IMG/VR virus record: IMGVR_UViG_3300046753_000522
Span: 1-64,000 of that record
Direction: 5' to 3' (one strand)
Length of the DNA stretch: 64,000 nt
Origin: a virus
Part shown: one piece after another, positions 29,628-46,494 of the stretch
How positions within the stretch are numbered: the stretch's first letter is position 1
Layout of the letters: each line of letters begins with the position of its first letter
Translations under genes and position numbers: made by a program
The notes under the pieces: generated by a model
What the model was told of the DNA's origin: nothing
What the model saw: the letters and a program-made list of their open reading frames with translations, nothing else
Databases searched by the model: none

Positions 29628-32600
29628 TTATGCGGCAGTGCGAACTAGAATTGTTCGAACTTCTTCTTCCATTATTCGTAATGTAGAAGATGGCGGGATG
29701 TCTTGCTGCTCGCCCAGAGTCTGGTAGATTGTACACTCAACTTTCGAGTCGCTACACTGAAGCGCAGCATCAACATCGATCTCACGTTCAGCGTTACCAA
29801 CAACTCGCGAGTCGCCTGACTGAACTGCCTGACCCAGACCGTCATTATTAAGTATACGCTCAGCAACACCAACGACAGTAGAAGGTTGCGCCTGTAGAGC
29901 ATGAGTAGCGCCATTGTCTTCAACCGTGCGTTTAGCAACACCAACAACCGTGGAGGGTTGCGCCTGCGGAGAAGCATCGAGAGCATTACTTGTTCTCTCT
30001 ACGACTGCAGTTACATGCGCGTCTTGTGCTTTCGGAGAGGCATCAATGTCATTGCTTGTACGTTCTACAACCGCAGTTACATGCGAGGGACCAGACTTGA
30101 GACGTATGGGTCGCTGCAGAGGTACAATAATGTTTTCACTGGTGCCGAATACCTGCGAATCAGAACACTTCAGTGCTGCTTCGATTGGGAGGCGACTTAT
30201 CTTACCATTGCCCTCAACGAGCGAGTCAGTGGTTGTGAGGGCAGTGATGACCTCGTCAGGTTCTTCAGTGACGATTCTCTCAGCAACACCAGTGACGATG
30301 TGATACTCTGTGGGTCGTAGGTTTGCACCACCCTGATCATCGGAGACGCGATCCATGTCACCGACAACGATCGAGTCAGAGGCAACCAGAACACCAGCAC
30401 CTGTGATGATTCTTTCAGCAATACCCTCGACGATGCAGTCAGATGCGACGAGAGGATGAGTCCTACCGCCATCCTTGACTGTTCTCTTGACGACAGCAGT
30501 AACGGTGGAGGGACCAGACTCAACTGATTGGCCAAGACCGTCATTGTTGAGCGTTCTCTCGCCAAGACCAACAACGCGCGAGTCACCTGACTGCACCGCC
30601 TGACCCAATCCGTCGTTGTTAAGGAGTCGCTCGGCGACACCAGTGACGATGTGGTATTCAGTCGGACGCAGGGCAGCAGACGTTCTAATCTCGCGTTCAG
30701 CATCGCAGACGACCTGACTATCAGAGGCAACCAGTACGCCAGCGCCGACGATCGTTCTTTCGGCAACGCCAGTGACGATAGAGTCACTAACTGTGAGTTC
30801 GTGTATCGTGCCGTTGTCTTCAACTGTTCTCTCTGCAAGACCAACAACCTTGGAATCGTCAGAAACGATATGATTAAATCCTGGAAGCAGAGTAATGCTA
30901 CGCTCAGCAAGACCAGTAACGATTGAATCTGTTAATACAAGAGCATTTATAAAGTCATCTGGATGCTCTTCAATAATACGTTCCGCGAGACCAGTGACCT
31001 TCGAATCTCCAGATACAGGATCATCACCCTGATCATCTGGATGCTCTTCAATAATACGCTCAGCAAGACCAGTAACAATCGAATCTGTAACGGTGAGCAC
31101 CTGACCCAATCCGTCGTTATTGATGATGCGTTCTGCAACACCGACAACGATGTTAAATTCGGTCGGGCGAAGTGCAATATCTTCTGCTGGTATAATTCTC
31201 TCAGCAACGCCACTAACGATTGAGTCCGTGACGGTGAGGGCATGAGTAGTGCCACCGTCTTCGACTATGCGTTCAGCAACACCTGTGACGATATGCTCAA
31301 TGTTCGGTCGGAATGCAGCATTAAGTTCGTTCTGTTCAATGATGCGCTCAGCAACACCAACGACAATATTATTCTCGGTTGGTTTGAGTGCGTGATTCGC
31401 GAGGTTGTCTTCAACAGTACGTTCAGCAAGACCTGTAACGAGTGAGTCCGTGACCGTGAGAGCATTGGCAAAGTCTTCTGGGAATTCTTTGACCGTTCTC
31501 TCACCGAGACCAGTAACGGTAGAGTTGCCACTGACGAGTCGTTGCTTATCAGTACCGAATCCAGGTTTGCGAATAATTCTTTCAGCAATGCCCGTTACAA
31601 CAGCGTTGCCATCGACAACGAGATCCTGATTAATGTCATTTGTATCAATCGACCTTTCAGCACGTCCGCGTACAATAGCATCGGATGCGACGAGATTATG
31701 CTCAGAGGTATGGTCTTTCGATGTTCGGAAACCAGAACCGACGACGATTGAGTCGGTAGTGACCAACTCCTCGTAGATGTCTTCGATACCGAACGCGAAA
31801 CCTCTGGTGCGCGAGTCGCTACACTTGAGTGCGCCCGATGCCTTGCGGATAAGTTGCGTGACCGAAGTGGTGCGACAGTCAGTCGACTTGATGTTGAACG
31901 ACTGTTGGTCCGGATGTTCTTCAATGACACGTTCCGCACGCCCAACAATGATCGAATCAGAAGCAATTATATCGCCCGTACCATTAATGGTTCTTTCGGC
32001 GACACCCACAACAGTAGATTCGCCGGACTCAATAGATTGCCCAAGTCCATCATTGTTGAGCGCACGTTCCGCTACACCAACGACAACCGATTCTGAAGCA
32101 CGTAGAGCAGCAGTTTGCTCTTGCTGATCAATTACGCGCTCAGCATTACATACAATTACGGCATCAGATGCCTGCAGGTTTGCAGAACTCAGAAGATTAG
32201 AAGTAATCTCTGTGACCGCAGTTACAATAGAATCTGTACACTCAAGAGTTGCATCAATTGGCAGTCTTGATACCTTACCAACGCCAACGACCAGAGAGTC
32301 TGTGGTTACGAGGTCAGCACGTATCTTACGTTCTACAATGCCCTCACCGAATACAATAGAATCAGTGGTAGTGAGTTGCTGACCAAGACCATGGTTATTC
32401 AGTTTACGTTCAGCGACACCGCGAACGATAGAGTCAGATGCGACGAGAGCAAATGATTGCTCGTCTGGATCTTCTGTGATAAGACGTTCAGCGACACCAG
32501 TAACAATAGAGTCAGATGCGACGAGAGCAAACGACTGATCGTCTGGATCTTCTGTGATAAGACGTTCAGCGACACCGACGACTATTGAATCAGACGCCTT

Positions 32601-35600
32601 GATGTTGACGGGCAGATCATTGATCTCAACTATACGTGTACCAACACCATTAACTGTAGAATCAGATGCCTTCAGTATAATTGGTTCTGCCAGAGTCTTG
32701 ATGATATCTGCTGTGCCAGTAACGGTTGAGTTGCCAGAGACGAGAGCATGAGTAGCACCCGCATCATCGATTACTCTATCGCCAACGCCAACAACCAGTA
32801 CATCAGAGGCAACCAGTTTAACGTCACCGACGTTGTGTATCGTTCTCGATACTTCACCAGTAACTGTAGACGGACCAGACTGTAGTGCGTGAGTTACGCC
32901 ATTATCTTCGACGATACGTTTGGCGAGACCAACAACCTTAGAGTCACCAGACTGTATAGTTTCGTACAGATCCTCGATACCAATAGCGATACCGTTGACT
33001 TTCGAGTCACTCGTCTTCAGTGCGGCACTAATCGAATTAATGGTTCTCTCGACGACTGCTGTTACATGAGCATTACCTGCCTTGAGGTTTGCCGAACTTA
33101 GCAGGTTAGAACCGATCTCTACAGTAGCAGATACCGTGGCGTCTTGTGCCTTGACAGGATTGAAACCACCAGTGAGTCGGTCTCTGTACATAGAGACTGT
33201 TTCGATTTCTACTTCTTCTGTCTGAGCATCTCCGAGGATGCCGTAACCACTGTTGACAGCATTGTACAGAGTCTTCGGATCGTATCCTGTTTCGGTGACG
33301 TACCAGTGATTCGCGAAGTGACCATTGCCACTGGTTGCTTCCGAATAGACGACAATGTACCACAGAGAAGCACTAACCTTTCTGTGATAGAAGTTGTAAT
33401 CATTGTCTACTGCTAATGTGTAATCACCATCGCTCTGAGAATCTACAACAAATCCATGCTCAGGCAGAAGTTCGTATGTACCGTTGAACTTGGCGTTCGT
33501 GGTAGTGAATCCGCTCAGTACCAGTTTGCTGCCAGTGTAACTTACTTTGCTATTCGTATTCGACGGTGACAGTGCACTCTCGACTTCGTCGGGTACACGG
33601 ACGACCGTGCGTTCTGCCAGACCAGTGACCTGTGCATCCTGTGCCTTGACTCCAGCACTGCTGAGTATGTTACCGCCTCTTGCTCCCTGCCCTTCGACAG
33701 AGGAGTCTCCAGAAACGATATCGCCAGACCCAACAGATGCCCTTTCTGCGACACCAACGACCGTGGAGGGACTAGAGGCGAGTTCTCCAGTACTGTTTGA
33801 ACCACGGATACCGAGACCTGTGACCTGAGATGGTCCGGACTCTAGAGTTAGTCCTGGATCGCCATCTACGACTCGGTCGCCATTACCAAAGACGACTGCG
33901 TCAGACGCTTTGAGGTTGGAAGAACTGAGAGAGTTGCTCGTAATCTCTACAACTGCCGTTACAGTGGCATCGCCTGACTTGAGTGTGATCGTTTGAGATT
34001 CATAACCTATGAAACCGCGACCAACTACGGCAGCATCACCAGACACCAGTCGATGCGTTCGACCTTCATCATCAACTCCACGATCACCAGCACCTACCAC
34101 TTGCGAGTCGCCAGTTACAAGGTCCGCTGATTGGACTGTGATAACACGTTCGGCACGACCAGTGACTAACGCAACACCGTTACCAAGTTGTTGACCCAAC
34201 CCATAGTGCCAGATAGTTCTTTCCGCGACACCGACTATAGTTGCATCGCCAGATTGTACAGCAGCATCGTCTCCGTCGATCTGACGTTCGGCGATACCAA
34301 ATGCCTCAACGTTGAACGGAGTCATGCGAATATCTACTGCTGTGCGCATTACACGCTCGGCAACACCCACTACAATGGCATCGCTCGCCTGTAGGTCGGT
34401 AGATTCGAGAAGGTTACTTGATAATTCAGTGGTGGCAGTTACACTTGCGGCGCCAGACTTGAGGGCAGCAGATACTGTTCTCTTGACCTGTATGAAGTCA
34501 TCAGAGTAATCGACGTTAGAGGCATGAATTACAAAGTTGTCTGCCTGAAGTTCTACATCAATTCCAGGATAAGATCGACTAACGGTGGCATTTACGTGTG
34601 CGTCTTGTGCCTTCAGAGCAATACGGATTTCAAACTCTTGATCCACGTCAGCATTTACGGTGGCGTCGCCTGCCTTCAATGCCCCCGAAGCAATGATCCT
34701 TCGATAGATCTCAGAAGCATTTACAGTTGAGTCACCTGCCTTGAGTTGTACTGCTGTCCTGTGTTCTCTCTCAGCAACACCGACGACAGTTGAGTCGCCA
34801 ACCTCTAGCGCATGGGTGGCAACGTTGTCATCAACTCCACGAATACCTTCGCCTGTTACTTGTGAGTCACCAGAAACGAGAGTATCCGTGCCATTCACGG
34901 TTCTCTCGGCAACGCCAGTGACGAGGCAATCGGTTGTGGTCAGTCTTTGTGTACCAACGGTATAATGGACAACGTCTGCTACACCAACAACAGTGGCGTC
35001 TTGTGCCTTCAGAGCAATATCATTCGTTACGCGACCAATGTTGGCAAGACCGACAATGGTAGAATCGCCTGACTGTAGTTGTTGTCCGACCGGAGCATTG
35101 TTCAGTAGTCTCTCGCCAAGACCAACAACAGTAGCATCTTGTGCCTTGAGCGCAGGATTACCTGCACCCTTCTCTACTTCACTTAATGCAGTGACGGTAG
35201 ATGGTCCGGACTCAAGAGTGGCAACAATCGGTTTACGGGAAATCTCATAAGTAGCAACTACTTTCGAATCTCCGGAATATACTGCCTGACCTAATCCATC
35301 GTTATTGAGTAATCTTTCTCCATCACCTTCTATAAGTGCAGAAGAAGTTGTCTCGCCAGTTTCAGTATGGTCCTGAGTGTAACCTGTAATCTTGGGTGGA
35401 GTTCCCGAATAGGTAAACCATGGTGTTCTGAGACCTTCCGGCGCACCACCATAGTCAAACGTGGTCTCCCAATTTTGGGGAACTTTGAGTGTTATGATGC
35501 CGACCCACTCATCATTATTTGTATCGTAGATAATGCTCTTGTATCCACCCAACAAGAGGTAACTGATACGACTGGTGAATACAATGTAAGTTGAAGTGGT

Positions 35601-38282
35601 GTCGACTGAAACAGAATTATCTGTTGTGTCGATTGTGTAGTATAGCGGTTGCCTCAGATACTCACCAACAAAGGTTTCTGCTTCGTCCGTATAACCAACG
35701 GCGAATAACTGAATTTCATACGGATATAGAATCTTGGCGTCGTTAGATATATCAGTGTCCCCAAATTGGGGTCTCTTATATGATAGTGATATACCAGATC
35801 CGATACCAGTAACGAGATGAATTGTTCGAGAAGTTGCACCGACTACGGTTGAGTCGCCCGATACCAATGCTCCAGTAGCATCCTGACCTCGGTCGGCACC
35901 ATCTGCACTAACTGATGATTCTCCGGATTGTAGGGCACCAGAACCAAAGACAGATCGTTTGGTTGCGCCAACTACCTGAGAATCATAGCACTGTAGTTCA
36001 ATCGAAGATACTGTTGGTTGACGAGCAGCAACACCAACAACAGTGGAATTTGAAGCAACGAGATCAGCAGAGGTGGTTTCCCTTACAACACTTGATGATC
36101 CTACAACGATAGAGTCTCCGGAAACCAGTGCATGTGTCACGCCACCATCTTCGATAATGCGTTCAGCAACACCTACAACCTGACAGTCAGATGCAATCAA
36201 CTCAACGTCAGTTGACCTGAGTCCTGTCGTTTCTCCGTGCACCTCAGCGTCGCTACATTGAAGTTGACCAGTGCCGTGAATCGTTCTTTCGATGACGGTA
36301 GTGACCTTCGAGTCACTGCATACAAGGACACCCGATCCGGATATCTTTGCTGTTGCTGAACCAGTAACAGTACTATCAGAACAAACGAGAGTACCAGAAC
36401 CATTTATTTCTCTCTCAACAGCACCAACGACAATTGAGTCGCTGCACTTTAAGACAACGGCATCTTCGAACTTCCTGAAGGCAACGCCTATTACTTCGGC
36501 ATCTTGTGCCTCAACAGTTGCGTCGATCGGGTTTCGAGAAATTGAGTATTCAATCTCGACCCGAGATTGTCCTGAGTAAAGTGCTACAGCAGGAAGGAAA
36601 GAAGATGCATCGGCATAAGCAAGATACCCATTAGTACCTGAGACAACCCAATTGGTGCCATTGAAGGCAATTCCTTTAAGATCTCTTTGGTTGGGATCTG
36701 AAGTGTTCTGATATGACCAAGCAGTTCCACCACTCTTTCCGATGAGTATGCTGCCACCTGTACCACCCACTGCCCATGTATTTTTTTCTGCATTGTAATC
36801 AAGACATTGTAGTCTTACAGAGGCGAGGGCATCTTCCTGTACAAGAACGTCAACGGAGGTGCCATTGTCAGTTTTACAGACAGCGCCGTCAGAACCTACG
36901 ATGAGGAAGTGGTCATCACCATATGCAATACCGAATGGGTTGCTTGCTCTGGTTTTTTCAGCACCAACTGTCCATGTAGAACCATTCGAAGAATATGCTG
37001 TGCGGAAGTTTTGCGTGGAAATAACAAACCGATCATCGCCATAGGCGACGTACATCGCTAAAGAGGCATTGAGAGGAATGGTAGGTGACCATTGAGGTGT
37101 ATCGACCAGAGTCCAAGAAGTCAGATCAGAAGTAGATGCAACAAGGACAATACCGAAATTACCAGTAACAACAACCTTGCCCCCACCAACAGCAACAGAG
37201 ACAAGTTTTAGTGTATCACCAAATGATTCTTGGTTTCCATTACCTTTATGTACATCGGCAAGTACGGTGTCAAGGTCGATGCTTGACATTGTTGAGAAGT
37301 TATCAGTGGTTAAGAATAACCTCGCCCCAACTATCGTCCCCTGAGGGGAACGATTTCCTCCACCGACCAAGACGAATGCATTGTTCGATACTTGCGCAAG
37401 TGACTGTACTATAGCGAGAGTATTACTGTTAGCAGAAATACCAGTCGGACGAGAAGTTGTCCAGGTTTCTCCATCGTCGGTCGATCTGAAGATCTGAGGA
37501 AGTTGACTCGCCCCGCCTTGGGTAGCAATAAACTCTCCGGAACTGGTGGCGATCATGTTGTTGATGGCACCGTTGCCGTGTGGTCCTTCAATGCCGTCCA
37601 AATCGATGTCATTGAGGGCGAGACCCTCTTTTCCGGCGACAACCGTTCTCTCGGTGACACCCGTAACCTTGGATGCCTGAGACCTGATTTCACCTTCGAC
37701 GGTGGAAATAGTTCGTTCCGTTGTCCCTACAACTACTGACTCTTGTGCTTGTACAGCAGCAACAATCGGTTTGCGGGTTATCTTGGTTGTGCCAACGACA
37801 ACGCAGTCAGATGCTTTGAGTGTTCCAGTATCACCTGCTGTGGCGAATGCGTCGGTAGTGCTGTCGCTACATTTGAGGGCACCCGAACCAAAGACAGATC
37901 GCTTAGTGGTGCCAACTAGGAGAGAATCGGTAGACTGGAGGGAACCAGATGCAACATGAACAAGGTCAGCAGAACCTGTTACCTCGGAATCAGAGCAAGT
38001 GAGGTCGCCAGCAGCGACTGCCTTATTTTCAGCAACGCCGTTGACAGTAGAATCGCCTGATACGAGTGTACCAGGACCGATGCTCCTAGATCCACCCTTG
38101 CCATGAACAAAGGAGGGACTGCTAAACAGTTGTACTTTAGCGTCTCCTGGACCGTTACGTGCCTCTGCTGAAACAGAAGCATCCTGAGCATCGAGTGTAA
38201 CCCCCAAAATGTGTATGCGTTTAACATACCCGTGGGTTACATATCCGTCTTCAATGTATTCTATCAGTTGGTAAGTTGACAC
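29628..38282 (-). CDS. Giant (2884 aa) periodic repeat protein with a beta-propeller and two inserted domains
   Basis: Dozens of approximately 22-28-aa L-x-[ASC]-x-D[SA]-x-V-x-G-x-AER repeats; BNR motif FRSTDDGETW; GTG start. Confidence 0.85.
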   Translation of the reverse strand: MSTYQLIEYIEDGYVTHGYVKRIHILGVTLDAQDASVSAEARNGPGDAKVQLFSSPSFVHGKGGSRSIGPGTLVSGDSTVNGVAENKAVAAGDLTCSDSEVTGSADLVHVASGSLQSTDSLLVGTTKRSVFGSGALKCSDSTTDAFATAGDTGTLKASDCVVVGTTKITRKPIVAAVQAQESVVVGTTERTISTVEGEIRSQASKVTGVTERTVVAGKEGLALNDIDLDGIEGPHGNGAINNMIATSSGEFIATQGGASQLPQIFRSTDDGETWTTSRPTGISANSNTLAIVQSLAQVSNNAFVLVGGGNRSPQGTIVGARLFLTTDNFSTMSSIDLDTVLADVHKGNGNQESFGDTLKLVSVAVGGGKVVVTGNFGIVLVASTSDLTSWTLVDTPQWSPTIPLNASLAMYVAYGDDRFVISTQNFRTAYSSNGSTWTVGAEKTRASNPFGIAYGDDHFLIVGSDGAVCKTDNGTSVDVLVQEDALASVRLQCLDYNAEKNTWAVGGTGGSILIGKSGGTAWSYQNTSDPNQRDLKGIAFNGTNWVVSGTNGYLAYADASSFLPAVALYSGQSRVEIEYSISRNPIDATVEAQDAEVIGVAFRKFEDAVVLKCSDSIVVGAVEREINGSGTLVCSDSTVTGSATAKISGSGVLVCSDSKVTTVIERTIHGTGQLQCSDAEVHGETTGLRSTDVELIASDCQVVGVAERIIEDGGVTHALVSGDSIVVGSSSVVRETTSADLVASNSTVVGVAARQPTVSSIELQCYDSQVVGATKRSVFGSGALQSGESSVSADGADRGQDATGALVSGDSTVVGATSRTIHLVTGIGSGISLSYKRPQFGDTDISNDAKILYPYEIQLFAVGYTDEAETFVGEYLRQPLYYTIDTTDNSVSVDTTSTYIVFTSRISYLLLGGYKSIIYDTNNDEWVGIITLKVPQNWETTFDYGGAPEGLRTPWFTYSGTPPKITGYTQDHTETGETTSSALIEGDGERLLNNDGLGQAVYSGDSKVVATYEISRKPIVATLESGPSTVTALSEVEKGAGNPALKAQDATVVGLGERLLNNAPVGQQLQSGDSTIVGLANIGRVTNDIALKAQDATVVGVADVVHYTVGTQRLTTTDCLVTGVAERTVNGTDTLVSGDSQVTGEGIRGVDDNVATHALEVGDSTVVGVAEREHRTAVQLKAGDSTVNASEIYRRIIASGALKAGDATVNADVDQEFEIRIALKAQDAHVNATVSRSYPGIDVELQADNFVIHASNVDYSDDFIQVKRTVSAALKSGAASVTATTELSSNLLESTDLQASDAIVVGVAERVMRTAVDIRMTPFNVEAFGIAERQIDGDDAAVQSGDATIVGVAERTIWHYGLGQQLGNGVALVTGRAERVITVQSADLVTGDSQVVGAGDRGVDDEGRTHRLVSGDAAVVGRGFIGYESQTITLKSGDATVTAVVEITSNSLSSSNLKASDAVVFGNGDRVVDGDPGLTLESGPSQVTGLGIRGSNSTGELASSPSTVVGVAERASVGSGDIVSGDSSVEGQGARGGNILSSAGVKAQDAQVTGLAERTVVRVPDEVESALSPSNTNSKVSYTGSKLVLSGFTTTNAKFNGTYELLPEHGFVVDSQSDGDYTLAVDNDYNFYHRKVSASLWYIVVYSEATSGNGHFANHWYVTETGYDPKTLYNAVNSGYGILGDAQTEEVEIETVSMYRDRLTGGFNPVKAQDATVSATVEIGSNLLSSANLKAGNAHVTAVVERTINSISAALKTSDSKVNGIAIGIEDLYETIQSGDSKVVGLAKRIVEDNGVTHALQSGPSTVTGEVSRTIHNVGDVKLVASDVLVVGVGDRVIDDAGATHALVSGNSTVTGTADIIKTLAEPIILKASDSTVNGVGTRIVEINDLPVNIKASDSIVVGVAERLITEDPDDQSFALVASDSIVTGVAERLITEDPDEQSFALVASDSIVRGVAERKLNNHGLGQQLTTTDSIVFGEGIVERKIRADLVTTDSLVVGVGKVSRLPIDATLECTDSIVTAVTEITSNLLSSANLQASDAVIVCNAERVIDQQEQTAALRASESVVVGVAERALNNDGLGQSIESGESTVVGVAERTINGTGDIIASDSIIVGRAERVIEEHPDQQSFNIKSTDCRTTSVTQLIRKASGALKCSDSRTRGFAFGIEDIYEELVTTDSIVVGSGFRTSKDHTSEHNLVASDAIVRGRAERSIDTNDINQDLVVDGNAVVTGIAERIIRKPGFGTDKQRLVSGNSTVTGLGERTVKEFPEDFANALTVTDSLVTGLAERTVEDNLANHALKPTENNIVVGVAERIIEQNELNAAFRPNIEHIVTGVAERIVEDGGTTHALTVTDSIVSGVAERIIPAEDIALRPTEFNIVVGVAERIINNDGLGQVLTVTDSIVTGLAERIIEEHPDDQGDDPVSGDSKVTGLAERIIEEHPDDFINALVLTDSIVTGLAERSITLLPGFNHIVSDDSKVVGLAERTVEDNGTIHELTVSDSIVTGVAERTIVGAGVLVASDSQVVCDAEREIRTSAALRPTEYHIVTGVAERLLNNDGLGQAVQSGDSRVVGLGERTLNNDGLGQSVESGPSTVTAVVKRTVKDGGRTHPLVASDCIVEGIAERIITGAGVLVASDSIVVGDMDRVSDDQGGANLRPTEYHIVTGVAERIVTEEPDEVITALTTTDSLVEGNGKISRLPIEAALKCSDSQVFGTSENIIVPLQRPIRLKSGPSHVTAVVERTSNDIDASPKAQDAHVTAVVERTSNALDASPQAQPSTVVGVAKRTVEDNGATHALQAQPSTVVGVAERILNNDGLGQAVQSGDSRVVGNAEREIDVDAALQCSDSKVECTIYQTLGEQQDIPPSSTLRIMEEEVRTILVRTAA
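32405..32580 (-). repeat. Near-identical 78-bp tandem repeats inside the giant gene
   Basis: GAGTCAGATGCGACGAGAGCAAA...TCTTCTGTGATAAGACGTTCAGCGACACC at a 78-nt period. Confidence 0.9.
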
Positions 38283-38320: not shown

Positions 38321-38328
38321 TATTTAGG
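38321..38328 (-). promoter_or_regulatory. Possible variant late promoter CCTAAATA upstream of the giant gene
   Basis: Near-consensus, overlaps the upstream stop codon. Confidence 0.35.
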
Positions 38329-39016
38329 GAGTTTGAATTTCCTCCAGCAACATCTCAACCATTTTTTTGCCTGTTTCATCTACATTGAATATAAAAGCGA
38401 CTGTTGCTCTGAGGCACTCCGTTTCTGCCATATGATATACTATTTCCTTTCCATCAGGAGAGGTCTCATATGCGCCATAATAACCAAACTTGCATTGCCA
38501 TCCAGGTGTATCCTCGATGGTTACTATTTCTCTTTTCTTTGGGTCCCAGTGTTTCCACCGACCCTTGCCCCCTTCAGACCAAGTGAAGAGGACGTTGTAT
38601 GCATCGCAGTTTGCATTATTGTGCCAAGAGATATAACCTCCAGGTGGATAAATGGCAAACAGCGCATTTCTTTTTGAACCAGTCCAAGAGTTGAGTTTAG
38701 ACATCAGGCGAACATATTCTGCCATAAGTTCGCCTCTATCGCAATCTAACTCTGGCGCTCTACCGCCTTCAAACCCAACTCCCGTCAAAAGTTCTGGATA
38801 CCCATCATGGGCATTCCACAGTTTACGGATTCGATGTAGATACTCATCCGAGCAGAATTCATCGCGCCTTTCCAACATATCTTGTTGGCAATTTCTGTGA
38901 GTCTCAATGGGTGTAGATTTGAAGAACTGCACAAACTCTTCCAAAATTTCTAAAAGTTCTTCATTATGTATTTCGACAGATTGCATCATATCTGTCTTCT
39001 CAATTGTTTCGATCAT
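38324..39016 (-). CDS. Putative 2OG-Fe(II) oxygenase-like (double-stranded beta-helix) protein
   Basis: YPPGGYISWHNN ... VYHMA ... CLRAT spacing matches the Hx(D)...H...R layout, with Asn in place of Asp. Confidence 0.6.
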   Translation of the reverse strand: MIETIEKTDMMQSVEIHNEELLEILEEFVQFFKSTPIETHRNCQQDMLERRDEFCSDEYLHRIRKLWNAHDGYPELLTGVGFEGGRAPELDCDRGELMAEYVRLMSKLNSWTGSKRNALFAIYPPGGYISWHNNANCDAYNVLFTWSEGGKGRWKHWDPKKREIVTIEDTPGWQCKFGYYGAYETSPDGKEIVYHMAETECLRATVAFIFNVDETGKKMVEMLLEEIQTP

Positions 39017-39018
39017 GA

Positions 39019-41625
39019 TTAACTCACTCTGACGTATAATGTAAATGTTTCTATTGTTTCGGAAGTATCTATAAGAGTGTCACCAGCATATTGCCCAGTG
39101 TACTGGTTGGTATAGGATCCAGCGTAATCTCCGCTGTATGTGCGATCACCAGAGAAATACCGAAGTCCTGTGAACGCGCTCGCGCCAGTATACTGCGAAG
39201 AGAATACACGATCGCCTTGATACTGTATGTTTCCGACAAACTGGTTATCTGCTGTGTAATCGGTCGAGAATGTTCTCACTCCAGCGAATTGTCTTGTTCC
39301 TTGGAAGTTGGCAGATGTGCTGAAAGTATCTGGTTTGGTTCGACTTCCAGAGTATTGTCTCGGACCAGTGAAGTCTCCTGGAGTACTGAATGCTTGCGAC
39401 GGCGCACGATCGCCAGAGTAGTTACGAGGTCCAACGAAGTTTTCTGGTCGACCAAATGGTTGCGTCCTTGACCTACTACCAGAATATTGTCGAGGTCCAG
39501 TAAAGTCTCCTGGTCGACCAAATGGTTGCGTCCTTGACCTACTACCAGCAAATTGTCGACTTCCAGTGAAGTTACCTGGACCCGTGAAAGCATAATCCCT
39601 AACCCCAAGATACTGTACTGCGCGGTTTCCACCAAATGGTTGGTACACTACTCCAGGACGATACCAAGTTGTGTATCCGAGGTACTGGAATGGTCGATTC
39701 CCAGCAAAGACTCCAGGTCGAACGAATTGAGCAGGAACATTTTGGGTATAATAGACCACCCTAGGACCAGCAAAAGACCTTGGTGCAGTGAAGGAAGAAT
39801 TTCTTGCAAAACTTCCAGGACTTGGTGCTCCAGGTCGAACACCAGACCAGTTTAGCACAATTGTGCGACTCCCCGCGAAACTACGTGTGCCAGAAAATAC
39901 CGAGACGATAGGTTGTCCGCTAAGGTTGACCAGGGGACTGGAAATCGGTGGAACATAGTACACCGAACTAAAAGATCTTTGTCCCACAAACGATCCGTTT
40001 GGGAAGTAGTACACGGCGGTGAACGACCCATTCGAGGGTGAACCACCACGAACGCCCGAAAAATACCGTATCCCTTGAAAGACTTGTTGCCCACCAGCAA
40101 AATTTTGCGATACCACTCCAGGTCGGAAAATGATCTGGTATCCAGCAAATTGTCGCTGACCATTAAACTGCTGGGGCAAATACGCAGGGCGATAGTATGC
40201 AACTCCCCGAGAGTAATTTATCCCACGCGGTCCCGCAAAATATTGATATATTACTGCAGGTCTGTATGCTGGTCTTGGTCCTGAAAATGCCCGCTGTCCA
40301 CCAAAGGGTTGTGGACTTCTCGCGTATTGGTCAGAAAATGTTCTTGGTCCCGAAAAGGATCGAACCCCACCAAATGGTTGTTGACCTCCCGCGTACTCGC
40401 CAGAAAATGTTCTTGGTCCAGAATAGGATCGAACCCCAGCAAAGGTTTCTGGTGCACTAGCATACTGGCCAGAAAATGTTCTTGGACCCGAAAAGGTACG
40501 AACCCCAGCAAAGGTTTGAGGACTTCCTGCATAGTCTCCGGCAAAGTCACGCGTGCCAGCAAAAGAACGAACCCCAGCAAAGTCTGTTAGGGCAGAAGTG
40601 AAGTCGCCTGGATTATCTCTGAAACCAGAGAATCCCCGAACTCCAGAAAATTGTTCGGGAGGAGCACCATAAGCAGAGGAATACGTTCTGTCTCCAGCAA
40701 ATTGCCTCGTTCCCGCAAAGTCAGTGGGGTCAGAAGCATAGTCGCCAGCATAAGTTCTATCACCGCTGTACTGTACAGAAGAGAATCCGCTATACTGCCC
40801 AGCATACTGTTGACTCTCAGTAGTGTATCGAGTATCTACTGCTGCTCCTCTCGAAACCCAAGTTCCTGTATCTGTCGGTGCACCCTGCGCTGAACTTCTC
40901 AACTGGTAAGAACCAACCTGCCCTTGATCAAACTGTTTCCTGATCATTTGGCCAAAGGTGGTTGACACTTGGTCTTGGGTCATCGCCTGCAGACCATCGT
41001 TGTAGTCTGCCATTGGAATGACACCGTATGCGTCCCTGCGCACGTACATAGGAGAGCATGAGTCTGGCATAGTTCCAGAGGTTCTCTGCCAGATTGTATA
41101 TGAGGTTACTGCGCCATCAGTAGTTGTATCGGTGAATACATCACTAATAGAGGCGGTCCAGTCAGCACTTGGGGCAGATGCAGAGAGTCTGTATACTCCA
41201 GGATATTCTTGAGTTTCGATAATAGAAAGCAGAGAATTGCCGAGGGTTGACATTGTAGTCGAATTCATGTCACGAATACTTGTGGCAGAATCGGAATCCA
41301 CCACTGGACGACGGAACGCCGACAACTCATCAGTTTCTACCGTACCATCCTTTCTTTGAAAGAGATTGGTGGTTGTTGTTCCCACCGTGAGGGATGATGC
41401 TGGGTGCGTGCCCACAGGTTGCTCATAGAAAGTATTGACGAAACTGCCTATGAGGTTGTCGGAAGTGTCTCCCTCAACATTCAACGTAATTGAGGTGGCA
41501 GAATCTACGTCGGTTGCCAGATGTAACCCTGCTTGGTATGCAAGGTAATTGGCGTCCGAAGAAGATGCCCTCTTTAGATTACCGTTGTTATCCTTTAATA
41601 CGACCGGAGTTGAACTTTGAGACAT
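39019..41625 (-). CDS. F/Y-x-G-x-R repeat protein A (putative structural)
   Basis: Globular N-terminus of about 265 aa plus about 590 aa of aromatic-Gly-Arg repeats; paralog of 42914..45313; own late promoter. Confidence 0.8.
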   Translation of the reverse strand: MSQSSTPVVLKDNNGNLKRASSSDANYLAYQAGLHLATDVDSATSITLNVEGDTSDNLIGSFVNTFYEQPVGTHPASSLTVGTTTTNLFQRKDGTVETDELSAFRRPVVDSDSATSIRDMNSTTMSTLGNSLLSIIETQEYPGVYRLSASAPSADWTASISDVFTDTTTDGAVTSYTIWQRTSGTMPDSCSPMYVRRDAYGVIPMADYNDGLQAMTQDQVSTTFGQMIRKQFDQGQVGSYQLRSSAQGAPTDTGTWVSRGAAVDTRYTTESQQYAGQYSGFSSVQYSGDRTYAGDYASDPTDFAGTRQFAGDRTYSSAYGAPPEQFSGVRGFSGFRDNPGDFTSALTDFAGVRSFAGTRDFAGDYAGSPQTFAGVRTFSGPRTFSGQYASAPETFAGVRSYSGPRTFSGEYAGGQQPFGGVRSFSGPRTFSDQYARSPQPFGGQRAFSGPRPAYRPAVIYQYFAGPRGINYSRGVAYYRPAYLPQQFNGQRQFAGYQIIFRPGVVSQNFAGGQQVFQGIRYFSGVRGGSPSNGSFTAVYYFPNGSFVGQRSFSSVYYVPPISSPLVNLSGQPIVSVFSGTRSFAGSRTIVLNWSGVRPGAPSPGSFARNSSFTAPRSFAGPRVVYYTQNVPAQFVRPGVFAGNRPFQYLGYTTWYRPGVVYQPFGGNRAVQYLGVRDYAFTGPGNFTGSRQFAGSRSRTQPFGRPGDFTGPRQYSGSRSRTQPFGRPENFVGPRNYSGDRAPSQAFSTPGDFTGPRQYSGSRTKPDTFSTSANFQGTRQFAGVRTFSTDYTADNQFVGNIQYQGDRVFSSQYTGASAFTGLRYFSGDRTYSGDYAGSYTNQYTGQYAGDTLIDTSETIETFTLYVRVS

Positions 41626-41673: not shown

Positions 41674-42435
41674 TTAGGGATTATCGTCCTCCTGATCGAA
41701 TTTCTTTGCTTGACAGGAGAGGTGATATACAACAGTGTTCTCTGGCATCGGTTGCTTCGTTCTATCAAGGATTGCCCAGTAGTTCCAGCGCAAATCATTT
41801 TCGAAGATTCCGACCTTTAGGTCTTTATACTTGGGTTCTTTCTCAGTTAACCACCAAAGGGTAAATTGATCCCACATCGAAAGGTTTTCACGAGGATACA
41901 ATTCGTCGTCAGGTTCGCCCTGTTCGTTAGTTGGCCACCACTGATTCTTATTTTGTTTAATAAAGTACTCGTGCCAGTCTTTCATAAACTCCATCACCAA
42001 CGGATTGCTGCTATCATACAGGCAGACAGCACCACAAAGCGTGAAGGTTCCTCCAGGGAACTCAGTATCCTTGAACACATACCACCGATCCCTCGGCAAT
42101 CCCGTGAACATCATATCGTGGTCGCCAAGTTCGTCCCACACCTTTGCGATATCTTCGTGGATAACCTCAGAGTCAGCATCGATATAGAATGTGAGGTCGT
42201 ATGGAGTGTTCGCCATTCCCCACAACTTTTCTCGCACGCCGTTACCGCAAAGCAGAAGATCATCTGCTAGATCTGCTCTCTGGTCTAGAAATCTTTCTTC
42301 AGTTACGAGACAAACCTTTGCTTCAGGGTGATAGTCTTTAATTGACTCAACAACATTACAGGCAAAGGAGTAGTAGCGATAGTGCCTTGATCCGACTACA
42401 ACATAACCCCTAGTCTTTGATTGTGAACTCGACAC
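41674..42435 (-). CDS. Putative GT-A fold glycosyltransferase
   Basis: GYVVVG strand, SIKDYHP, K...TPYDLTFYIDADS (DxD), CGAVCLY, WDQFTL, RWNY, VVYH: GT8-like motif order. Confidence 0.8.
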   Translation of the reverse strand: MSSSQSKTRGYVVVGSRHYRYYSFACNVVESIKDYHPEAKVCLVTEERFLDQRADLADDLLLCGNGVREKLWGMANTPYDLTFYIDADSEVIHEDIAKVWDELGDHDMMFTGLPRDRWYVFKDTEFPGGTFTLCGAVCLYDSSNPLVMEFMKDWHEYFIKQNKNQWWPTNEQGEPDDELYPRENLSMWDQFTLWWLTEKEPKYKDLKVGIFENDLRWNYWAILDRTKQPMPENTVVYHLSCQAKKFDQEDDNP

Positions 42436-42871
42436 CGATTTCCTCCATCATAATCAATTGTGCATAACATTGCATCTCGAGCAAACTTTTAGATCTTCGA
42501 AGTTTACTCTTCAATTTCTTATTCTCGGTGTTTTTGACTTCTTCGATTTCGAGGATCCTTATCTTGGCATCAAATAGTTCTTCAAGTTCCCTTGCTTTTT
42601 GATTTGCCTTGCGTTCTTGTTCCTCGACTTCTTGCTCTTTTGCCTTACGAATTCGGCGCTCTTCAGTACTCGTGTCGATCGCCTCTTCACCGACCTGTTC
42701 CATCAACTCTTCCCAATCGGGGTTGACGTTCATTTCGGTGTCGAATTTACGGACCGTGAGAACCTGAGAAATTTCCCGACCTTCAGAGTCTGTGATGACG
42801 AGAATCGCTTCTGCGATCTCTTTCTCTTCATTATGCCAGAAGGCATTGTCTAACCACTTTCTTTTGCTCAT
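42410..42871 (-). CDS. Hypothetical protein with a charged helical C-terminus
   Basis: 153 aa, AGGAG RBS, overlaps the glycosyltransferase start. Confidence 0.7.
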   Translation of the reverse strand: MSKRKWLDNAFWHNEEKEIAEAILVITDSEGREISQVLTVRKFDTEMNVNPDWEELMEQVGEEAIDTSTEERRIRKAKEQEVEEQERKANQKARELEELFDAKIRILEIEEVKNTENKKLKSKLRRSKSLLEMQCYAQLIMMEEIGVEFTIKD

Positions 42872-42913: not shown

Positions 42914-45313
42914 TCAGGTATCGGATACCCTACAGTACAGAGTGAAGGTGTCGATTGTCTGAATTTGTGATGTGATCGTTTGACCAGTATACTGGTTTGA
43001 ATACTGTGAAGTGTAGTTTCCAGCATAGACGCCAGTGTAAGTTCCACTGTATTGCGCAGTGTATGTAGTTGGAACTTGACCCGTAAACTGATTGTCACGA
43101 GGACCAGCGTAGGTTCCGATATAGTTTCTATCGCCCTGATACTGGTCCCCGCGCGAGGCAAAATTTCTGTCCCCTTGGTACTGCTTACCGTATGTCCTTT
43201 TACCTTGGAACTGAGTAGATCTGACGAATTGTTGTGTCGGAGAAGTAAAATCTCCAGGTTTTATTCTTGTGCCAGAGAAACTTCGGACACCAGCATATTG
43301 AATAGGCACAAGAGTATAGAATAATTGGTTTCTCACGTAGTTATTACTGAAACTTCTTTGCCCAGCAAATTGCTGCGGAGTGTTTCTTTGTCGACTTCCC
43401 TGGAAGGGGTATGGGAACGGACCGCCAAAGTTATTAGCATAATTGTATAATCTGTAACCTTGGTATGGTCTTGGATAGTAATACTCAACAGGGTAATTGG
43501 AGATGAAATTACGTTGACCTGTAAAGAAACTTGGAACGAATCTCACCCCAGCAAAGGCACGTGATCCTGCATAATATCCTGGAGAAGAATATAACACATT
43601 CCGTTGACCGTTATAGTATACGACTGAATAAGTCGAAAAAGATTCCCTGACACTAACAGGTTGATATGTTTCTCGACCCTGAATCGGAACGCCACCACTG
43701 GAGAAATTGAGGTTGTCATCCCCTTCGTCAACCACGGGGATGATCGGGTTGAAGAAGTAGTAAAACGGAGTTGGGGTTGGAGTTGGAGTTGGTCTTGGAC
43801 TTGGAGTTGGAGAACTATTGTAGCGGACTCCAGTATAAGACTGTGTAACTCCTCTTCCAAAGGGTAATTGTCCAGGACGATATAGTCCTTGGAACTGCTG
43901 AGGTCCGCCACCGAAATTGCTACCTACTGTGCGTTGAGCAGGCGTTGCCCTGTTTCCAGCAAAGGGGTATGGACCCAGTGTTCTATAGTTTGTGGCATAG
44001 GAAGATGTGACCCCGAACCCAGCGAATGGTTGAAGTCCTCCAGGTTGAACCCTGTATCCGCTAAATGCCCTTGTACGAAATCCGGCATAGTCGCCACCGT
44101 ATGAGATCTGGCGCACCCCAGCAAATGTTCTGTCTTTCTGGCGCGCACCAGAATAATATGAGGTTACGAAATTCGTAAGTGGTGTAAGACCCCCACGCTG
44201 AATTGGTCTTGTATAATCATCACTAAAAGATCTTTGCCCCGAAAACTGTCTGGTTCCGGCGAACTGCCTTGTTCCAGCATAGTCACCACTATAGTCTCTC
44301 TGTCCAGCATAGGTGCCTACAAAGTTCCGAGAACCTTGATAACTGCCAGTGTAGTTTCTGTCACCTTGGAAATTAAATGTTCGGAATCCAGAGTATTGAG
44401 TGTCGACGTCAGCGAAAGAGACGCCTGTATACTGACCAGTGTACTGCCCAGTGTATTGCCTCGTGTATTGAGGACTTGTAAACTGTACCGTGGCATACTG
44501 CAAATCTTGTACGATATGTTGTGTGTCAGTTGCTGTACCTCTTGCAACCCACGTACCGCTTGCTGTAGGCGCTCCCTGCGCCGAGGAGCGTAGTTCGTAA
44601 TCGCCCACCCCAGTTGTTGATTGACCGATCAAAAGGATCTCTCGTGCTATCTCCTTCGCCTCCTCCTTCGTTATCTCTCTTAGGTCAGGACTGACGCCAT
44701 CATTGAGAGCAACGGGGAAGTGCACGGGAATATTCGGTTCTTCTACAATAGAATTTTGTGTCAGTCTCCAGATATGATAGATGATATCGCCGGAAGTGCG
44801 AGTATCGGTGAAAGCAGAATCAATCCACTTTGTCCAACCAGAACCTGGAGATGACTGAGAGAGTTTAAAGGCACCAGCAAATGTGTTTACATGAACCTGC
44901 CCTGCGATTCTCTGCGCTAACTCGAGTATTCCCGCATCTTGCATTTCATATATTTCGCCGTCACTATCTGTTACGACAGGAATGGGGTAGGAACGGATAT
45001 ATCGAGTAGTGCTGGCAGAGTCTGCCATTTGATATAGGTTGGTGCTGATTGTCCCTTCACTGATAGAAGTTCCAGGGTGAGTCCCGACAGGTTCGTTATA
45101 GAAGGTATCGACATATGTGCCGATGAGATCCGCATTGTCAGAGTCAAGGGTTAGACTCTTGCTGTATCGGTCAGTCGTATTAGGATAAGTTGTGATTATC
45201 TTTTCCGATGCCCAATACGCCATCCATTCTTCTAATGCGGCATCAGACTGCTGTACACTTCCGTCTCCAGCGCCCGTCTTTAGAGTCAGCGGTATTGATT
45301 CATATGATGACAT
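42914..45313 (-). CDS. F/Y-x-G-x-R repeat protein B with a central Pro/Thr segment
   Basis: Shares TFYxxPVGTHP, YxLRSSAQGAPT..GTWV.RG and TIxTFTLYxRVS with protein A. Confidence 0.8.
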   Translation of the reverse strand: MSSYESIPLTLKTGAGDGSVQQSDAALEEWMAYWASEKIITTYPNTTDRYSKSLTLDSDNADLIGTYVDTFYNEPVGTHPGTSISEGTISTNLYQMADSASTTRYIRSYPIPVVTDSDGEIYEMQDAGILELAQRIAGQVHVNTFAGAFKLSQSSPGSGWTKWIDSAFTDTRTSGDIIYHIWRLTQNSIVEEPNIPVHFPVALNDGVSPDLREITKEEAKEIAREILLIGQSTTGVGDYELRSSAQGAPTASGTWVARGTATDTQHIVQDLQYATVQFTSPQYTRQYTGQYTGQYTGVSFADVDTQYSGFRTFNFQGDRNYTGSYQGSRNFVGTYAGQRDYSGDYAGTRQFAGTRQFSGQRSFSDDYTRPIQRGGLTPLTNFVTSYYSGARQKDRTFAGVRQISYGGDYAGFRTRAFSGYRVQPGGLQPFAGFGVTSSYATNYRTLGPYPFAGNRATPAQRTVGSNFGGGPQQFQGLYRPGQLPFGRGVTQSYTGVRYNSSPTPSPRPTPTPTPTPFYYFFNPIIPVVDEGDDNLNFSSGGVPIQGRETYQPVSVRESFSTYSVVYYNGQRNVLYSSPGYYAGSRAFAGVRFVPSFFTGQRNFISNYPVEYYYPRPYQGYRLYNYANNFGGPFPYPFQGSRQRNTPQQFAGQRSFSNNYVRNQLFYTLVPIQYAGVRSFSGTRIKPGDFTSPTQQFVRSTQFQGKRTYGKQYQGDRNFASRGDQYQGDRNYIGTYAGPRDNQFTGQVPTTYTAQYSGTYTGVYAGNYTSQYSNQYTGQTITSQIQTIDTFTLYCRVSDT

Positions 45314-45324
45314 AATCTACGCTC

Positions 45325-46494
45325 TTATGGATTCAACAACACGCCAGAACGATCGTATACGTTTGGAATCCTCGCATTTAATTCGTCGACTATTTCGTGG
45401 ATAGTAATCGAACTGATGTTTCCATTAGTTATACTACCAGGACCAGAAGATGGGATAGTTATCTCTCCCAAGAACTCTGCGTTGGCGCCAGTGAAATCGA
45501 TGGCAGTTGTTGTACCAGATTGTATCCTAAGTTCGCCATTGTTATCGACTAGTCTCGCATAGGTAGTGCCATCCTCTTTCAAAGTGAGGAACCCGTCGCC
45601 GTTGTCAAGGGTGATTCCTGAGGAGGCATCGACCACAAATGCGCCTGTCACATATCCAGTGTTAGTGGCACCCAGAGTCCAGTTGATTCTTTCTTGACCG
45701 CCATGCCTAAACTTGATGTTATTGCCACCAGCATCGAGAATGATATCATCTTCGGCATCGATTTCGACACCATCGTCGCCGCTGATCCTCATATACCCAA
45801 CCGCCTCAATAGTGGTAGAGTTTAAGAGGAAACGGAAGACGTCTACATTATCGTCTTTGAATACAATTGTGCCTGCGTCAGCATCGAGAACGATGTCTTC
45901 AGTGGCATCAATGACATAGTTGCCATTTGATGCGACAGTGTTAGTTGGACCCATCGTGTGAGTCAGTCTTGTTGCGGCACCATCGCGGAAGTAGATATGA
46001 TTTCCGTCAGCATCAAGAGTGATGTTTCCAGTGACGTCGAGTATGAAGTCGCCGTTGACCGTATTCTTCCAATCACCGTTCGTGATAATGTCTAACGCAG
46101 AGTCAGTAATGATCTGCCCAGCGTTTGCATCAAAGACTGCTTCGATCTCGTTGATAGCACCAACAACAGTCTTTGCTTCTGTGTGAGTCAATTGAGCAAA
46201 GTTACCGCCACCTGCGCCGTGCAGGTCACTATCCAACTCATTGATGGCGACTACCAGATCAGTCTTGCCATGGATAGGAAGCATGTCGGTCGTACAACCA
46301 TATCGGTCGACCGTTGACAATGCTTCTGTGGTGAGCATGTTACGATCACCAATAGCACTATCCAAGTATCGCAGATCGCTATCAACCACATCAGCGTTAT
46401 CGTTCATGTGGAAGATCATCTGCTGGAAAGTATCAGTTGTCTCGTATATAATATGAGGAACTTTTACTGCTTCTGTAGGATTGCTCGATGCCAT
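45325..46494 (-). CDS. Short fibre-like structural protein
   Basis: TTDTFQQ N-terminal motif, KTDLVVAINE/KTVVGAINE repeats, IxLDAxG beta repeats. Confidence 0.65.
   Translation of the reverse strand: MASSNPTEAVKVPHIIYETTDTFQQMIFHMNDNADVVDSDLRYLDSAIGDRNMLTTEALSTVDRYGCTTDMLPIHGKTDLVVAINELDSDLHGAGGGNFAQLTHTEAKTVVGAINEIEAVFDANAGQIITDSALDIITNGDWKNTVNGDFILDVTGNITLDADGNHIYFRDGAATRLTHTMGPTNTVASNGNYVIDATEDIVLDADAGTIVFKDDNVDVFRFLLNSTTIEAVGYMRISGDDGVEIDAEDDIILDAGGNNIKFRHGGQERINWTLGATNTGYVTGAFVVDASSGITLDNGDGFLTLKEDGTTYARLVDNNGELRIQSGTTTAIDFTGANAEFLGEITIPSSGPGSITNGNISSITIHEIVDELNARIPNVYDRSGVLLNP

Follow-up and report, generated by a model that had tools for sequence, protein, structure and literature searches.

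Phage fibres are usually trimers, and in the tip of the T4 fibre protein gp37 the chain goes out and back. Among the beta-prisms of the MABP and MACPF families, the P2 domain of perforin-2 carries a protruding beta-hairpin; we know of no member of these families in which a hairpin is expanded to hundreds or thousands of residues. Here, we describe such an expansion in protein A, which is encoded on the minus strand of a 64,000-nucleotide (nt) stretch of viral DNA (the window; positions 1 to 64,000 of the IMG/VR virus record IMGVR_UViG_3300046753_000522) and is probably a structural, virion-fibre protein of an uncultured T4-like aquatic myovirus. A compact base domain of protein A is interrupted in one hairpin turn by a 589-residue insert; in the family to which the protein belongs, the two halves of the insert mirror each other and gain or lose residues in pairs. 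The reading that we favour, and regard as fairly probable, is a virion fibre in which an in-register antiparallel ribbon with a hypervariable tip is mounted on a beta-prism base.

Base domain and insert of protein A

The gene and the parts of its product are laid out as follows (positions in the window; amino acids (aa) counted from the N-terminus):

39019..41625, minus strand: protein A gene (P0001, 868 aa plus stop), from the listing of open reading frames (ORFs), its translation and its homologues
40831..41625, minus strand: N-terminal base domain, aa 1-265, ending in the conserved W.[AS]RG.A.DT; AlphaFold2 predicted local distance difference test (pLDDT) mostly 80-96; conserved in all family members
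39955..40830, minus strand: outbound arm, aa 266-557; from the base, Y-x-G-x-Y units, then [FY]xGxRx hexad doublets, then irregular hydrophobic units
40270..40719, minus strand: seven hexad doublets at an exact spacing of 23 aa, aa 303-452; contains the 69-nt tandem array
39910..39954, minus strand: apex, aa 558-572 (VPPISSPLVNLSGQP); insert midpoint and least conserved zone
39064..39909, minus strand: return arm, aa 573-854; unit types in mirrored order
39139..39570, minus strand: seven hexad doublets at an exact spacing of 22 aa, aa 686-829; contains the 66-nt tandem array
39022..39063, minus strand: C-terminal closing strand, aa 855-868, consensus ETYTLYVRV; near-invariant across the family; AlphaFold2 strand 846-866

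In the AlphaFold2 monomer model of protein A (alignment of 50 sequences), residues 1-274 and 846-866 form one confident domain. Its three hairpins (strands 56-67/81-91, 156-167/173-181 and 256-274/846-866) share related strand sequences, and the extreme C-terminus supplies the closing strand of the third (pLDDT 81-97). In the model of the 422-aa relative P0055 (alignment of 60 sequences), the equivalent strands, 254-278 and 394-420, project ~15 residues past the domain. An initial annotation of the window, made from the sequence alone, had proposed that the repeat region of protein A is inserted into one turn, and the closure of the third hairpin by the C-terminus in both models bears this out. 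All motifs that it had quoted were found in the translation (TTTTNLFQRK at aa 83, DTTTDGAVTSYTIWQRT at 166, AVDTRY at 262, YAGQYSG at 274, GDRTYAGDY at 288, VPPISSPLVNLSGQP at 558, GDRTYSGDYAGSYTNQYTGQYAG at 826 and ETIETFTLYVRVS at 856), and a Pro/hydrophobic apex indeed lies near the midpoint: between the conserved anchors, the insert comprises aa 266-854 (589 aa), and its midpoint at aa 560 falls within aa 558-572. The four units of 23 aa and four of 22 aa described in the annotation require a recount; both periods are real, but the four-and-four are the most similar units of a seven-and-seven series, with outbound doublets at aa 303, 326, 349, 372, 395, 418 and 441 and return doublets at aa 686, 708, 730, 752, 774, 796 and 818.

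In the VIA structure comparison, the top five matches of the base domain were all MABP- or MACPF-associated beta-prisms (Z 7.4, 7.2, 6.4, 5.5 and 4.4; the next match had Z 2.9), values below 8 being such that they may mean only a common arrangement. The predicted base appears to resemble an MABP-type beta-prism, a resemblance that is not proven homology. Foldseek searches against the PDB and BFVD returned nothing at E <= 0.001, and protein A and its paralogue B (P0002, see below) matched no Pfam family (E <= 0.1), no PHROG (E <= 0.01) and no NCBIfam entry. A family profile run against PDB sequences reached a best E of 0.47 and did not place the family with MABP at the sequence-profile level; the ESM Atlas gave matches only to viral clusters without a name (scores 0.85-0.87).

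The elementary protein repeat of the insert is the hexad [FYW]xGxRx, present in 40 copies. At the DNA level, Tandem Repeats Finder reported a 69-nt unit in 3.3 copies (40298-40523) and a 66-nt unit in 2.3 copies (39425-39579). The arrays mirror each other in how far they lie from the base: the 23-aa period covers distances of 70-192 aa, counted from the N anchor, and the 22-aa period 89-187 aa, counted from the C anchor. The composition is strongly skewed: the insert contains 83 Gly (14%), 53 Arg (9%), 104 Phe, Tyr and Trp (18%) and 46 Pro, no His, Cys or Met in 588 aa, and almost no Lys (1), Glu (5), Leu or Ile. Conservation drops symmetrically from base to apex in both arms; identity to close relatives falls from 0.84 near the base to 0.57 distally in the outbound arm, is 0.69 in the distal, 0.63 in the mid and 0.83 in the base-proximal part of the return arm, and amounts to 0.39-0.44 at the apex in relatives with 0.9 identity in the base domain. 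Such a gradient is the pattern to be expected if the base attaches and the apex is an exposed, fast-evolving end.

Mirror symmetry and paired length changes

The initial annotation had further described the insert as mirror-organised, with arms that must lengthen together; at the level of the family, both descriptions are supported. Mirror symmetry was scored from smoothed composition tracks by asking, for every centre, how well one side predicts the other in mirror order. A fixed number of residue pairs per centre was used; a version with variable overlap was edge-biased and noisy. Of 156 non-redundant inserts, 43 had their best mirror centre at most 5 residues from the exact midpoint, where chance would give 6.6 (binomial 4e-23); the same-direction control gave 9. 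The mirror score exceeded the direct score in 134 of the 156, and a peak at the midpoint appeared only in the mirror test. Midpoint-centred inserts range from ~250 to more than 1000 aa. The centre of paralogue B lies at offset 0 and that of protein A at +5, with a z of 3.0 that is modest alone; the strong statistics are those of the family.

The symmetry between the arms is often complementary, not identical. In P0016, FxGVRxVN octad blocks oppose FxGPQPxN octad blocks across the arms and then the roles swap; the Pro track against the mirrored Arg+Val track peaks at r = 0.74, one residue off the midpoint. Similarly, [FY]xG[DN] tetrads oppose Thr/Arg-rich blocks in L019_1, and the shortest members have a basic outbound arm opposite an acidic return arm. 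The registers extend to single residues: in P0016, the aromatics of 21 consecutive [FYW]xG motifs, out of 25 in all, are equidistant from the N and C anchors, with shared distances of 8, 18, 24, 32 ... 144, 154, 162 and 174 that include irregular spacings. Aromatic positions are shared between the arms for 16 of 20 in P0026 and for 16 of 28, the others being off by one, in P0009, a relative of protein A with FxGxR hexads. None of 2000 spacing-shuffled controls reached the counts of P0016, P0009 or P0026. Family-wide, the best aromatic shift lay at most 2 residues from zero in 36 of the 156 inserts, where 6.4 are expected.

When the inserts of close homologues were aligned globally, indels in one arm were seen to have counterparts in the other that agree in sign, in size and in how far they lie from the base. 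The comparisons include P0019/P0023 (+20 at distance 218, +20 at distance 216), L019_1/L035_0 (-4/-4, -28/-28 and +14/+14 paired across the arms), L028_1/L030_1 (-14, -56, -28 and -28, each with a partner), L003_1/L004_1 (five indel pairs), L003_1/L006_1 (+64 vs +36 and +29), P0016/P0055 (+56 with +56, plus an apex deletion) and the nearest relatives of protein A, P0003/P0004 (-3 and -2 at 143-152 vs -2 at 141). Among the paired indels, small ones of 2, 4, 8 and 10 residues are frequent. When only indels of at least 4 aa outside the apex zone were counted in 19 independent pairs, a matched return-arm partner was found for 14 of 26 outbound-arm indels, against 3.5 ± 1.6 under the null, where the highest count of 2000 trials was 9. 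The extra length of the N-terminal half correlates with that of the C-terminal half across 23 independent homologue pairs (Pearson 0.90, Spearman 0.83). Literature searches returned no description of compensating two-arm indels as a mode of evolution.

Evidence for beta-strands comes from 7207 motifs in 163 inserts, in which a strict two-residue alternation is kept for at least 11 residues past each aromatic. Even offsets from the aromatic hold Gly, Arg and aromatics, and odd offsets Thr, Ser, Asn, Asp, Ala, Val and Pro. Arg, for instance, occupies the even offsets 4, 6, 8 and 10 in 30%, 25%, 8% and 15% of cases, and odd offsets in at most 3.5%. An alternation of this kind fits long beta-strands. 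Pro favours the odd offsets, with 1217 occurrences there against 367 at even ones. In standard beta-sheet geometry, residues of the same parity direct their NH groups to the same edge; given opposed aromatics, the Pro positions would be those at which the NH points away from the partner strand. Pro at outward-NH positions would therefore fit a sheet that is two strands wide and would argue against a strand sandwiched in a solenoid.

Structural readings of the insert

According to the favoured reading, residues 1-265 and the last ~14 residues would fold into the compact beta-prism base, and the turn of its third hairpin would be expanded to the 589-residue insert. The chain would then go outward for ~290 residues, reverse at the hypervariable Pro/hydrophobic apex and return, the chain reversal placing both arms side by side as in gp37. 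Antiparallel and in register, the arms may form a long two-stranded beta-ribbon with an aromatic/Gly/Arg face and a second face of Thr, Ser, Asn, Asp and Pro. The length of such a fibre could change only via paired insertions or deletions in both arms, because every residue needs a partner on the other arm. The conserved base presumably anchors the protein on the virion, in the region from the baseplate to the neck, with the fast-evolving apex as the distal end; the Arg/aromatic surface may mediate weak, multivalent contact with host surface polymers. A more specific version, which we consider less likely than not, makes the insert a free-standing beta-ribbon of two strands from a single chain, held together by aromatic pairs across the strands, by Arg and by Gly, and capped at its edges by Pro. 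Its predicted extended length would be ~95 nm in protein A (290 residues per arm at ~0.33 nm per residue) and several hundred nm in inserts of 2000-3000 aa.

Several observations weigh against the fibre with its paired arms. We know of no isolated two-stranded ribbon of such length, and the only basis for a location on the virion is gene position. The mirror centre coincides with the midpoint in only about a quarter of the family, the remainder being noisy or otherwise built. In protein A itself, the residue-level coincidence of aromatics is 7 of 30 (P = 0.44, not significant), and with periods of 23 and 22 aa the two arms drift apart by one residue per unit, such that a strict ladder would need one bulge per repeat; a pairing in which doublet k faces doublet k through all seven units would be compatible with one bulge per repeat. 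Unbalanced length changes also occur, namely +20 and +395 in L055_0/L075_0, +36 and +138 in P0033/P0038, and +77 in one arm alone in L013_0/P0058. The latter two proteins are otherwise 100% identical, one of them being without 77 aa of the outbound arm, which may reflect an assembly collapse in the repeat or a natural unbalanced intermediate. The giant relative from phage C48C1 has several globular domains of ~150-240 aa among its return-half repeats and unequal arms. Lastly, the AlphaFold2 monomer runs gave no confident model of the arms and no anti-diagonal contacts, with an arm pLDDT of ~35 in protein A and ~38 in P0055 and values below 50 throughout the insert, and the low-confidence outbound arm of protein A resembles a parallel solenoid, with short strands every 22-23 residues and VIA matches to leucine-rich repeat and beta-helix proteins (Z 3-4.6). 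This model speaks neither for nor against the ribbon.

These low-confidence strands, together with the regular long periods of 23, 22 and 28 aa, are what one might expect of a compact paired-arm object, either a two-start antiparallel beta-solenoid or two packed solenoid rods, measuring ~10-20 nm and not ~90 nm. On geometric grounds, a two-start solenoid would likewise give mirrored positions and paired indels. We nevertheless consider a compact object unlikely: the alternation runs at least 11 residues past the motif without a sign of turns, the frequent paired indels are as small as 2, 4, 8 and 10 residues, Pro at alternate positions along the blocks (FxGPQPxN, six times) would remove the hydrogen-bond donors of a sandwiched strand, and the supporting model has a pLDDT below 50. 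For a parallel solenoid, in which repeats stack in one direction and no mirrored second half is needed, the signs are mixed: mirror order beats direct order in 134 of the 156 inserts, and the low-confidence model looks solenoid-like. Assembly into an oligomer, for example a trimer whose three hairpins close into a tube of six strands with the aromatic/Arg face turned inward, resembling an enormously elongated gp37 needle, is conceivable, if doubtful. A continuous aromatic/Gly/Arg face would be costly for a monomer to expose, the trimeric state is the usual one of phage fibres, the gp37 tip likewise runs out and back, and the AlphaFold2 monomer fails on the arms. On the other hand, the base is predicted as a self-contained monomeric prism, the Pro-rich edges would hinder lateral hydrogen bonding among hairpins, and an insert devoid of His offers no gp37-type HxH metal sites.

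The composition of the insert, rich in Gly, Arg and aromatics (14%, 9% and 18%) and nearly free of Lys, Glu, Leu, Ile and Met, and its pLDDT below 50 along the whole length could also be those of an intrinsically disordered, sticky low-complexity region, with Arg/aromatic stickers, Gly/Ser/Gln spacers and a mirrored composition of other cause. Disorder of this kind gives no reason to expect mirror registers at the level of single residues, equal-sized paired indels, a strict period-2 alternation or near-invariant Gly columns across the family, and we regard it as very improbable. That the mirror organisation is a by-product of inverted repeats in the DNA, with a return arm encoded by the reverse complement of the outbound arm and the two kept matched by gene conversion, was considered on account of a 20-nt, 80% complementary pair (I1, I2) linking the 66-nt and 69-nt arrays and of a palindrome in the repeat units of L003, and can practically be dismissed. 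The scores of one arm against the reverse complement of the other equal those of codon-shuffled controls, both in protein A (12 vs 11.8 ± 1.3) and in L019_1 (12 vs 11.4 ± 1.6). The palindrome, GGAGTAACTCC, of ~11-13 nt, lies in the DNA of each 22-aa unit (NFLGVTPQNY...) of the second family ORF of L003 (IMGVR_UViG_3300007542_000388) and encodes GVTP; the inverted-repeat signal of L003 arises because this short self-complementary sequence sits within a unit that is directly repeated in both arms.

Two further features of these sequences were seen. The second family ORF of L003 holds many potential small DNA or RNA hairpins. In the window, the 20 nt at 39428-39447 (66-nt array) are 75-80% complementary to 40469-40488 and 40400-40419 (69-nt array), which stems from the self-complementarity of GGNCCN (Gly-Pro) codons (GPRTFSG vs PENFVGP) and is globally not above chance.

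Gene neighbourhood, family and known systems

The window represents the late structural module of a T4-like myovirus, entirely on the minus strand; the IMG/VR record is a virus fragment of 101,940 base pairs with an estimated completeness of ~60%. PHROG profiles assign the neighbours as major head protein, scaffold, portal, sheath, large terminase, neck proteins (gp13-, gp14- and gp15-like), baseplate wedge proteins (gp6- and gp8-like) and a gp5-like hub. The major capsid protein is 63% identical to its counterpart in phage C48C1 (Kyanoviridae) and 56-58% identical to those of T4-like phages of Pelagibacter, Methylophilales and Synechococcus. The genes of protein A and paralogue B sit between the baseplate wedge and the neck genes, a position that suits a tail or baseplate fibre protein, and the order gp8-like, a 389-aa protein (p389), family genes, p153-p253-p230, gp13-like recurs in IMG/VR loci. 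Besides protein A, the cassette in the window comprises:

42914..45313, minus strand: paralogue B (P0002, 799 aa), with base domain and closing strand as in protein A, a 519-aa insert and a Pro/Thr-rich apex
41674..42435, minus strand: accessory gene, 253 aa, beside the family genes in 56 of 75 loci
42410..42871, minus strand: accessory gene, 153 aa, acidic and Glu/Lys-rich, in 56 of 75 loci
38324..39016, minus strand: accessory gene, 230 aa, in 55 of 75 loci

Two side-by-side paralogues are present in 40 of the 74 loci carrying a family ORF, which is most of the loci with room for them. Where both paralogues are complete (22 phages), the shorter insert is that of the upstream gene in 21 cases (519 vs 589 aa in the window), and the insert lengths of paralogues correlate weakly (Spearman 0.42). 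A co-aligned heteromer of the two was considered and appears unlikely, because the insert lengths differ and correlate so weakly. The three accessory genes accompany the fibre paralogues in the fixed order 153, 253 and 230 aa (55-56 of 75 loci); their products have no Pfam, PHROG, NCBIfam or PDB sequence match, and an identity of neighbouring genes as glycosyltransferase or oxygenase found no sequence support in Pfam, PHROGs, NCBIfam or the PDB. That phages carry two paralogues along with three conserved accessory genes suggests that assembly or modification has a pathway of its own.

Two other ORFs border the cassette. Between it and the neck genes, a 2884-aa ORF (29628-38282, minus strand) contains many repeats of ~22-28 aa with motifs like SGDSxVxGxAER. 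On the other side lies the gene of the 389-aa protein (45325-46494, minus strand), conserved upstream of the fibre paralogues in 46 of 75 loci; its DUF2345 match (VgrG/gp5-type beta-helix; E 3e-4) is sub-threshold, falling below the cut-off, and a match to P2 gpV is weak (E 0.04).

Protein A is one of a large family of proteins, so far undescribed, in uncultured aquatic T4-like phages. A word-indexed search retrieved 50 homologues, and an exhaustive HMMER search at least 367 clusters at 50% identity; at least 247 IMG/VR contigs carry a relative. Across 120 full-length members, insert length varies from 95 to 2019 aa, with a constant base (~265 aa) and a constant closing strand, ETYTLYVRV. Among deposited phage genomes (50,697 records), tblastn with P0001, P0002 and P0071 found a single carrier, phage C48C1 (OQ984149; L002:112-10155), whose 3347-aa member retains base domain and closing strand; megablast of the protein A gene against the phage collection gave no match. 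In the C48C1 member, a stretch of ~75 aa occurs twice, nearly exactly, around aa 2010-2160. Pfam searches with four giant relatives found nothing, the C48C1 member has no Pfam match either, and giant relatives carry globular domains within or near the distal part. A match to ACG-2014g was spurious: it reflects low-complexity similarity to a fibre that has DVTGDLTG repeats and is unrelated. No description of the family was found in literature searches; the proteins of the 'tentaclins' paper (PMC10743442), with C-type lectin and Ig domains, are unrelated.

With these clusters and viral contigs lacking annotation, and with cultured phages nearly devoid of the family, a conspicuous component of uncultured aquatic T4-like phages had gone undescribed. 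With its paired indels and mirror registers, the family provides what is in effect a natural experiment in compensatory mutation, run on strand pairing over hundreds of residues, from which rules for long two-stranded ribbons may be read: which strand types face each other, which sites tolerate Pro and where aromatic pairs are placed. The family may also offer a length-tunable scaffold and, for phage biology, suggests a kind of fibre whose distal tip is hypervariable. Should the insert be a free-standing ribbon, it would be by far the longest beta-hairpin known and represent a new class of protein fibre, whose length evolves as indels in two widely separated regions of one gene compensate each other.

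Compared with described structures, the base of protein A comes closest to the MABP and MACPF beta-prisms, namely the C-terminal domain of Mp2Ba1 (8b6v), Photorhabdus Plu-MACPF (2qp2), the MABP domain of MVB12B (3tow) and perforin-2 P2 (6sb1), with Z 7.4, 7.2, 6.4 and 5.5. The alignments cover 118-123 residues, from aa ~43-274 plus the C-terminal strand, and like these prisms, the base of protein A is built of three hairpin-containing sub-repeats; sequence identity, by contrast, is 5-9%, with no relation at the sequence level. By its position, the gene corresponds to the gp9-gp12/wac (fibritin) region, where T4 encodes baseplate fibres and whiskers. There is no similarity in sequence or fold to these T4 proteins, gp11 reaching only Z 2.9 over 48 residues, and fibritin is a coiled coil, unlike protein A. 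The opposed aromatics and extended beta-structure proposed here, dispensing with a conventional hydrophobic core, are reminiscent of tryptophan zippers, OspA and SasG-type rods. These, however, are either short peptides made by design or small domains in series, and in none does one hairpin have hundreds of residues per arm.

Among phage fibres, where protein A and paralogue B match none of the PHROG tail-fibre families, the needle of T4 gp37 offers a close parallel: its chain runs out and back, both ends of the segment lie at one end of the fibre, and the distal tip is the variable, host-facing part. In gp37, three chains interweave into a needle that has HxH iron sites, and each arm measures only tens of residues; protein A, in contrast, has an insert without His, arms of ~290 residues and a monomer-like prism base. 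Protein A is in these respects a very large elaboration of two known elements, the protruding hairpin of a beta-prism and the out-and-back phage fibre.

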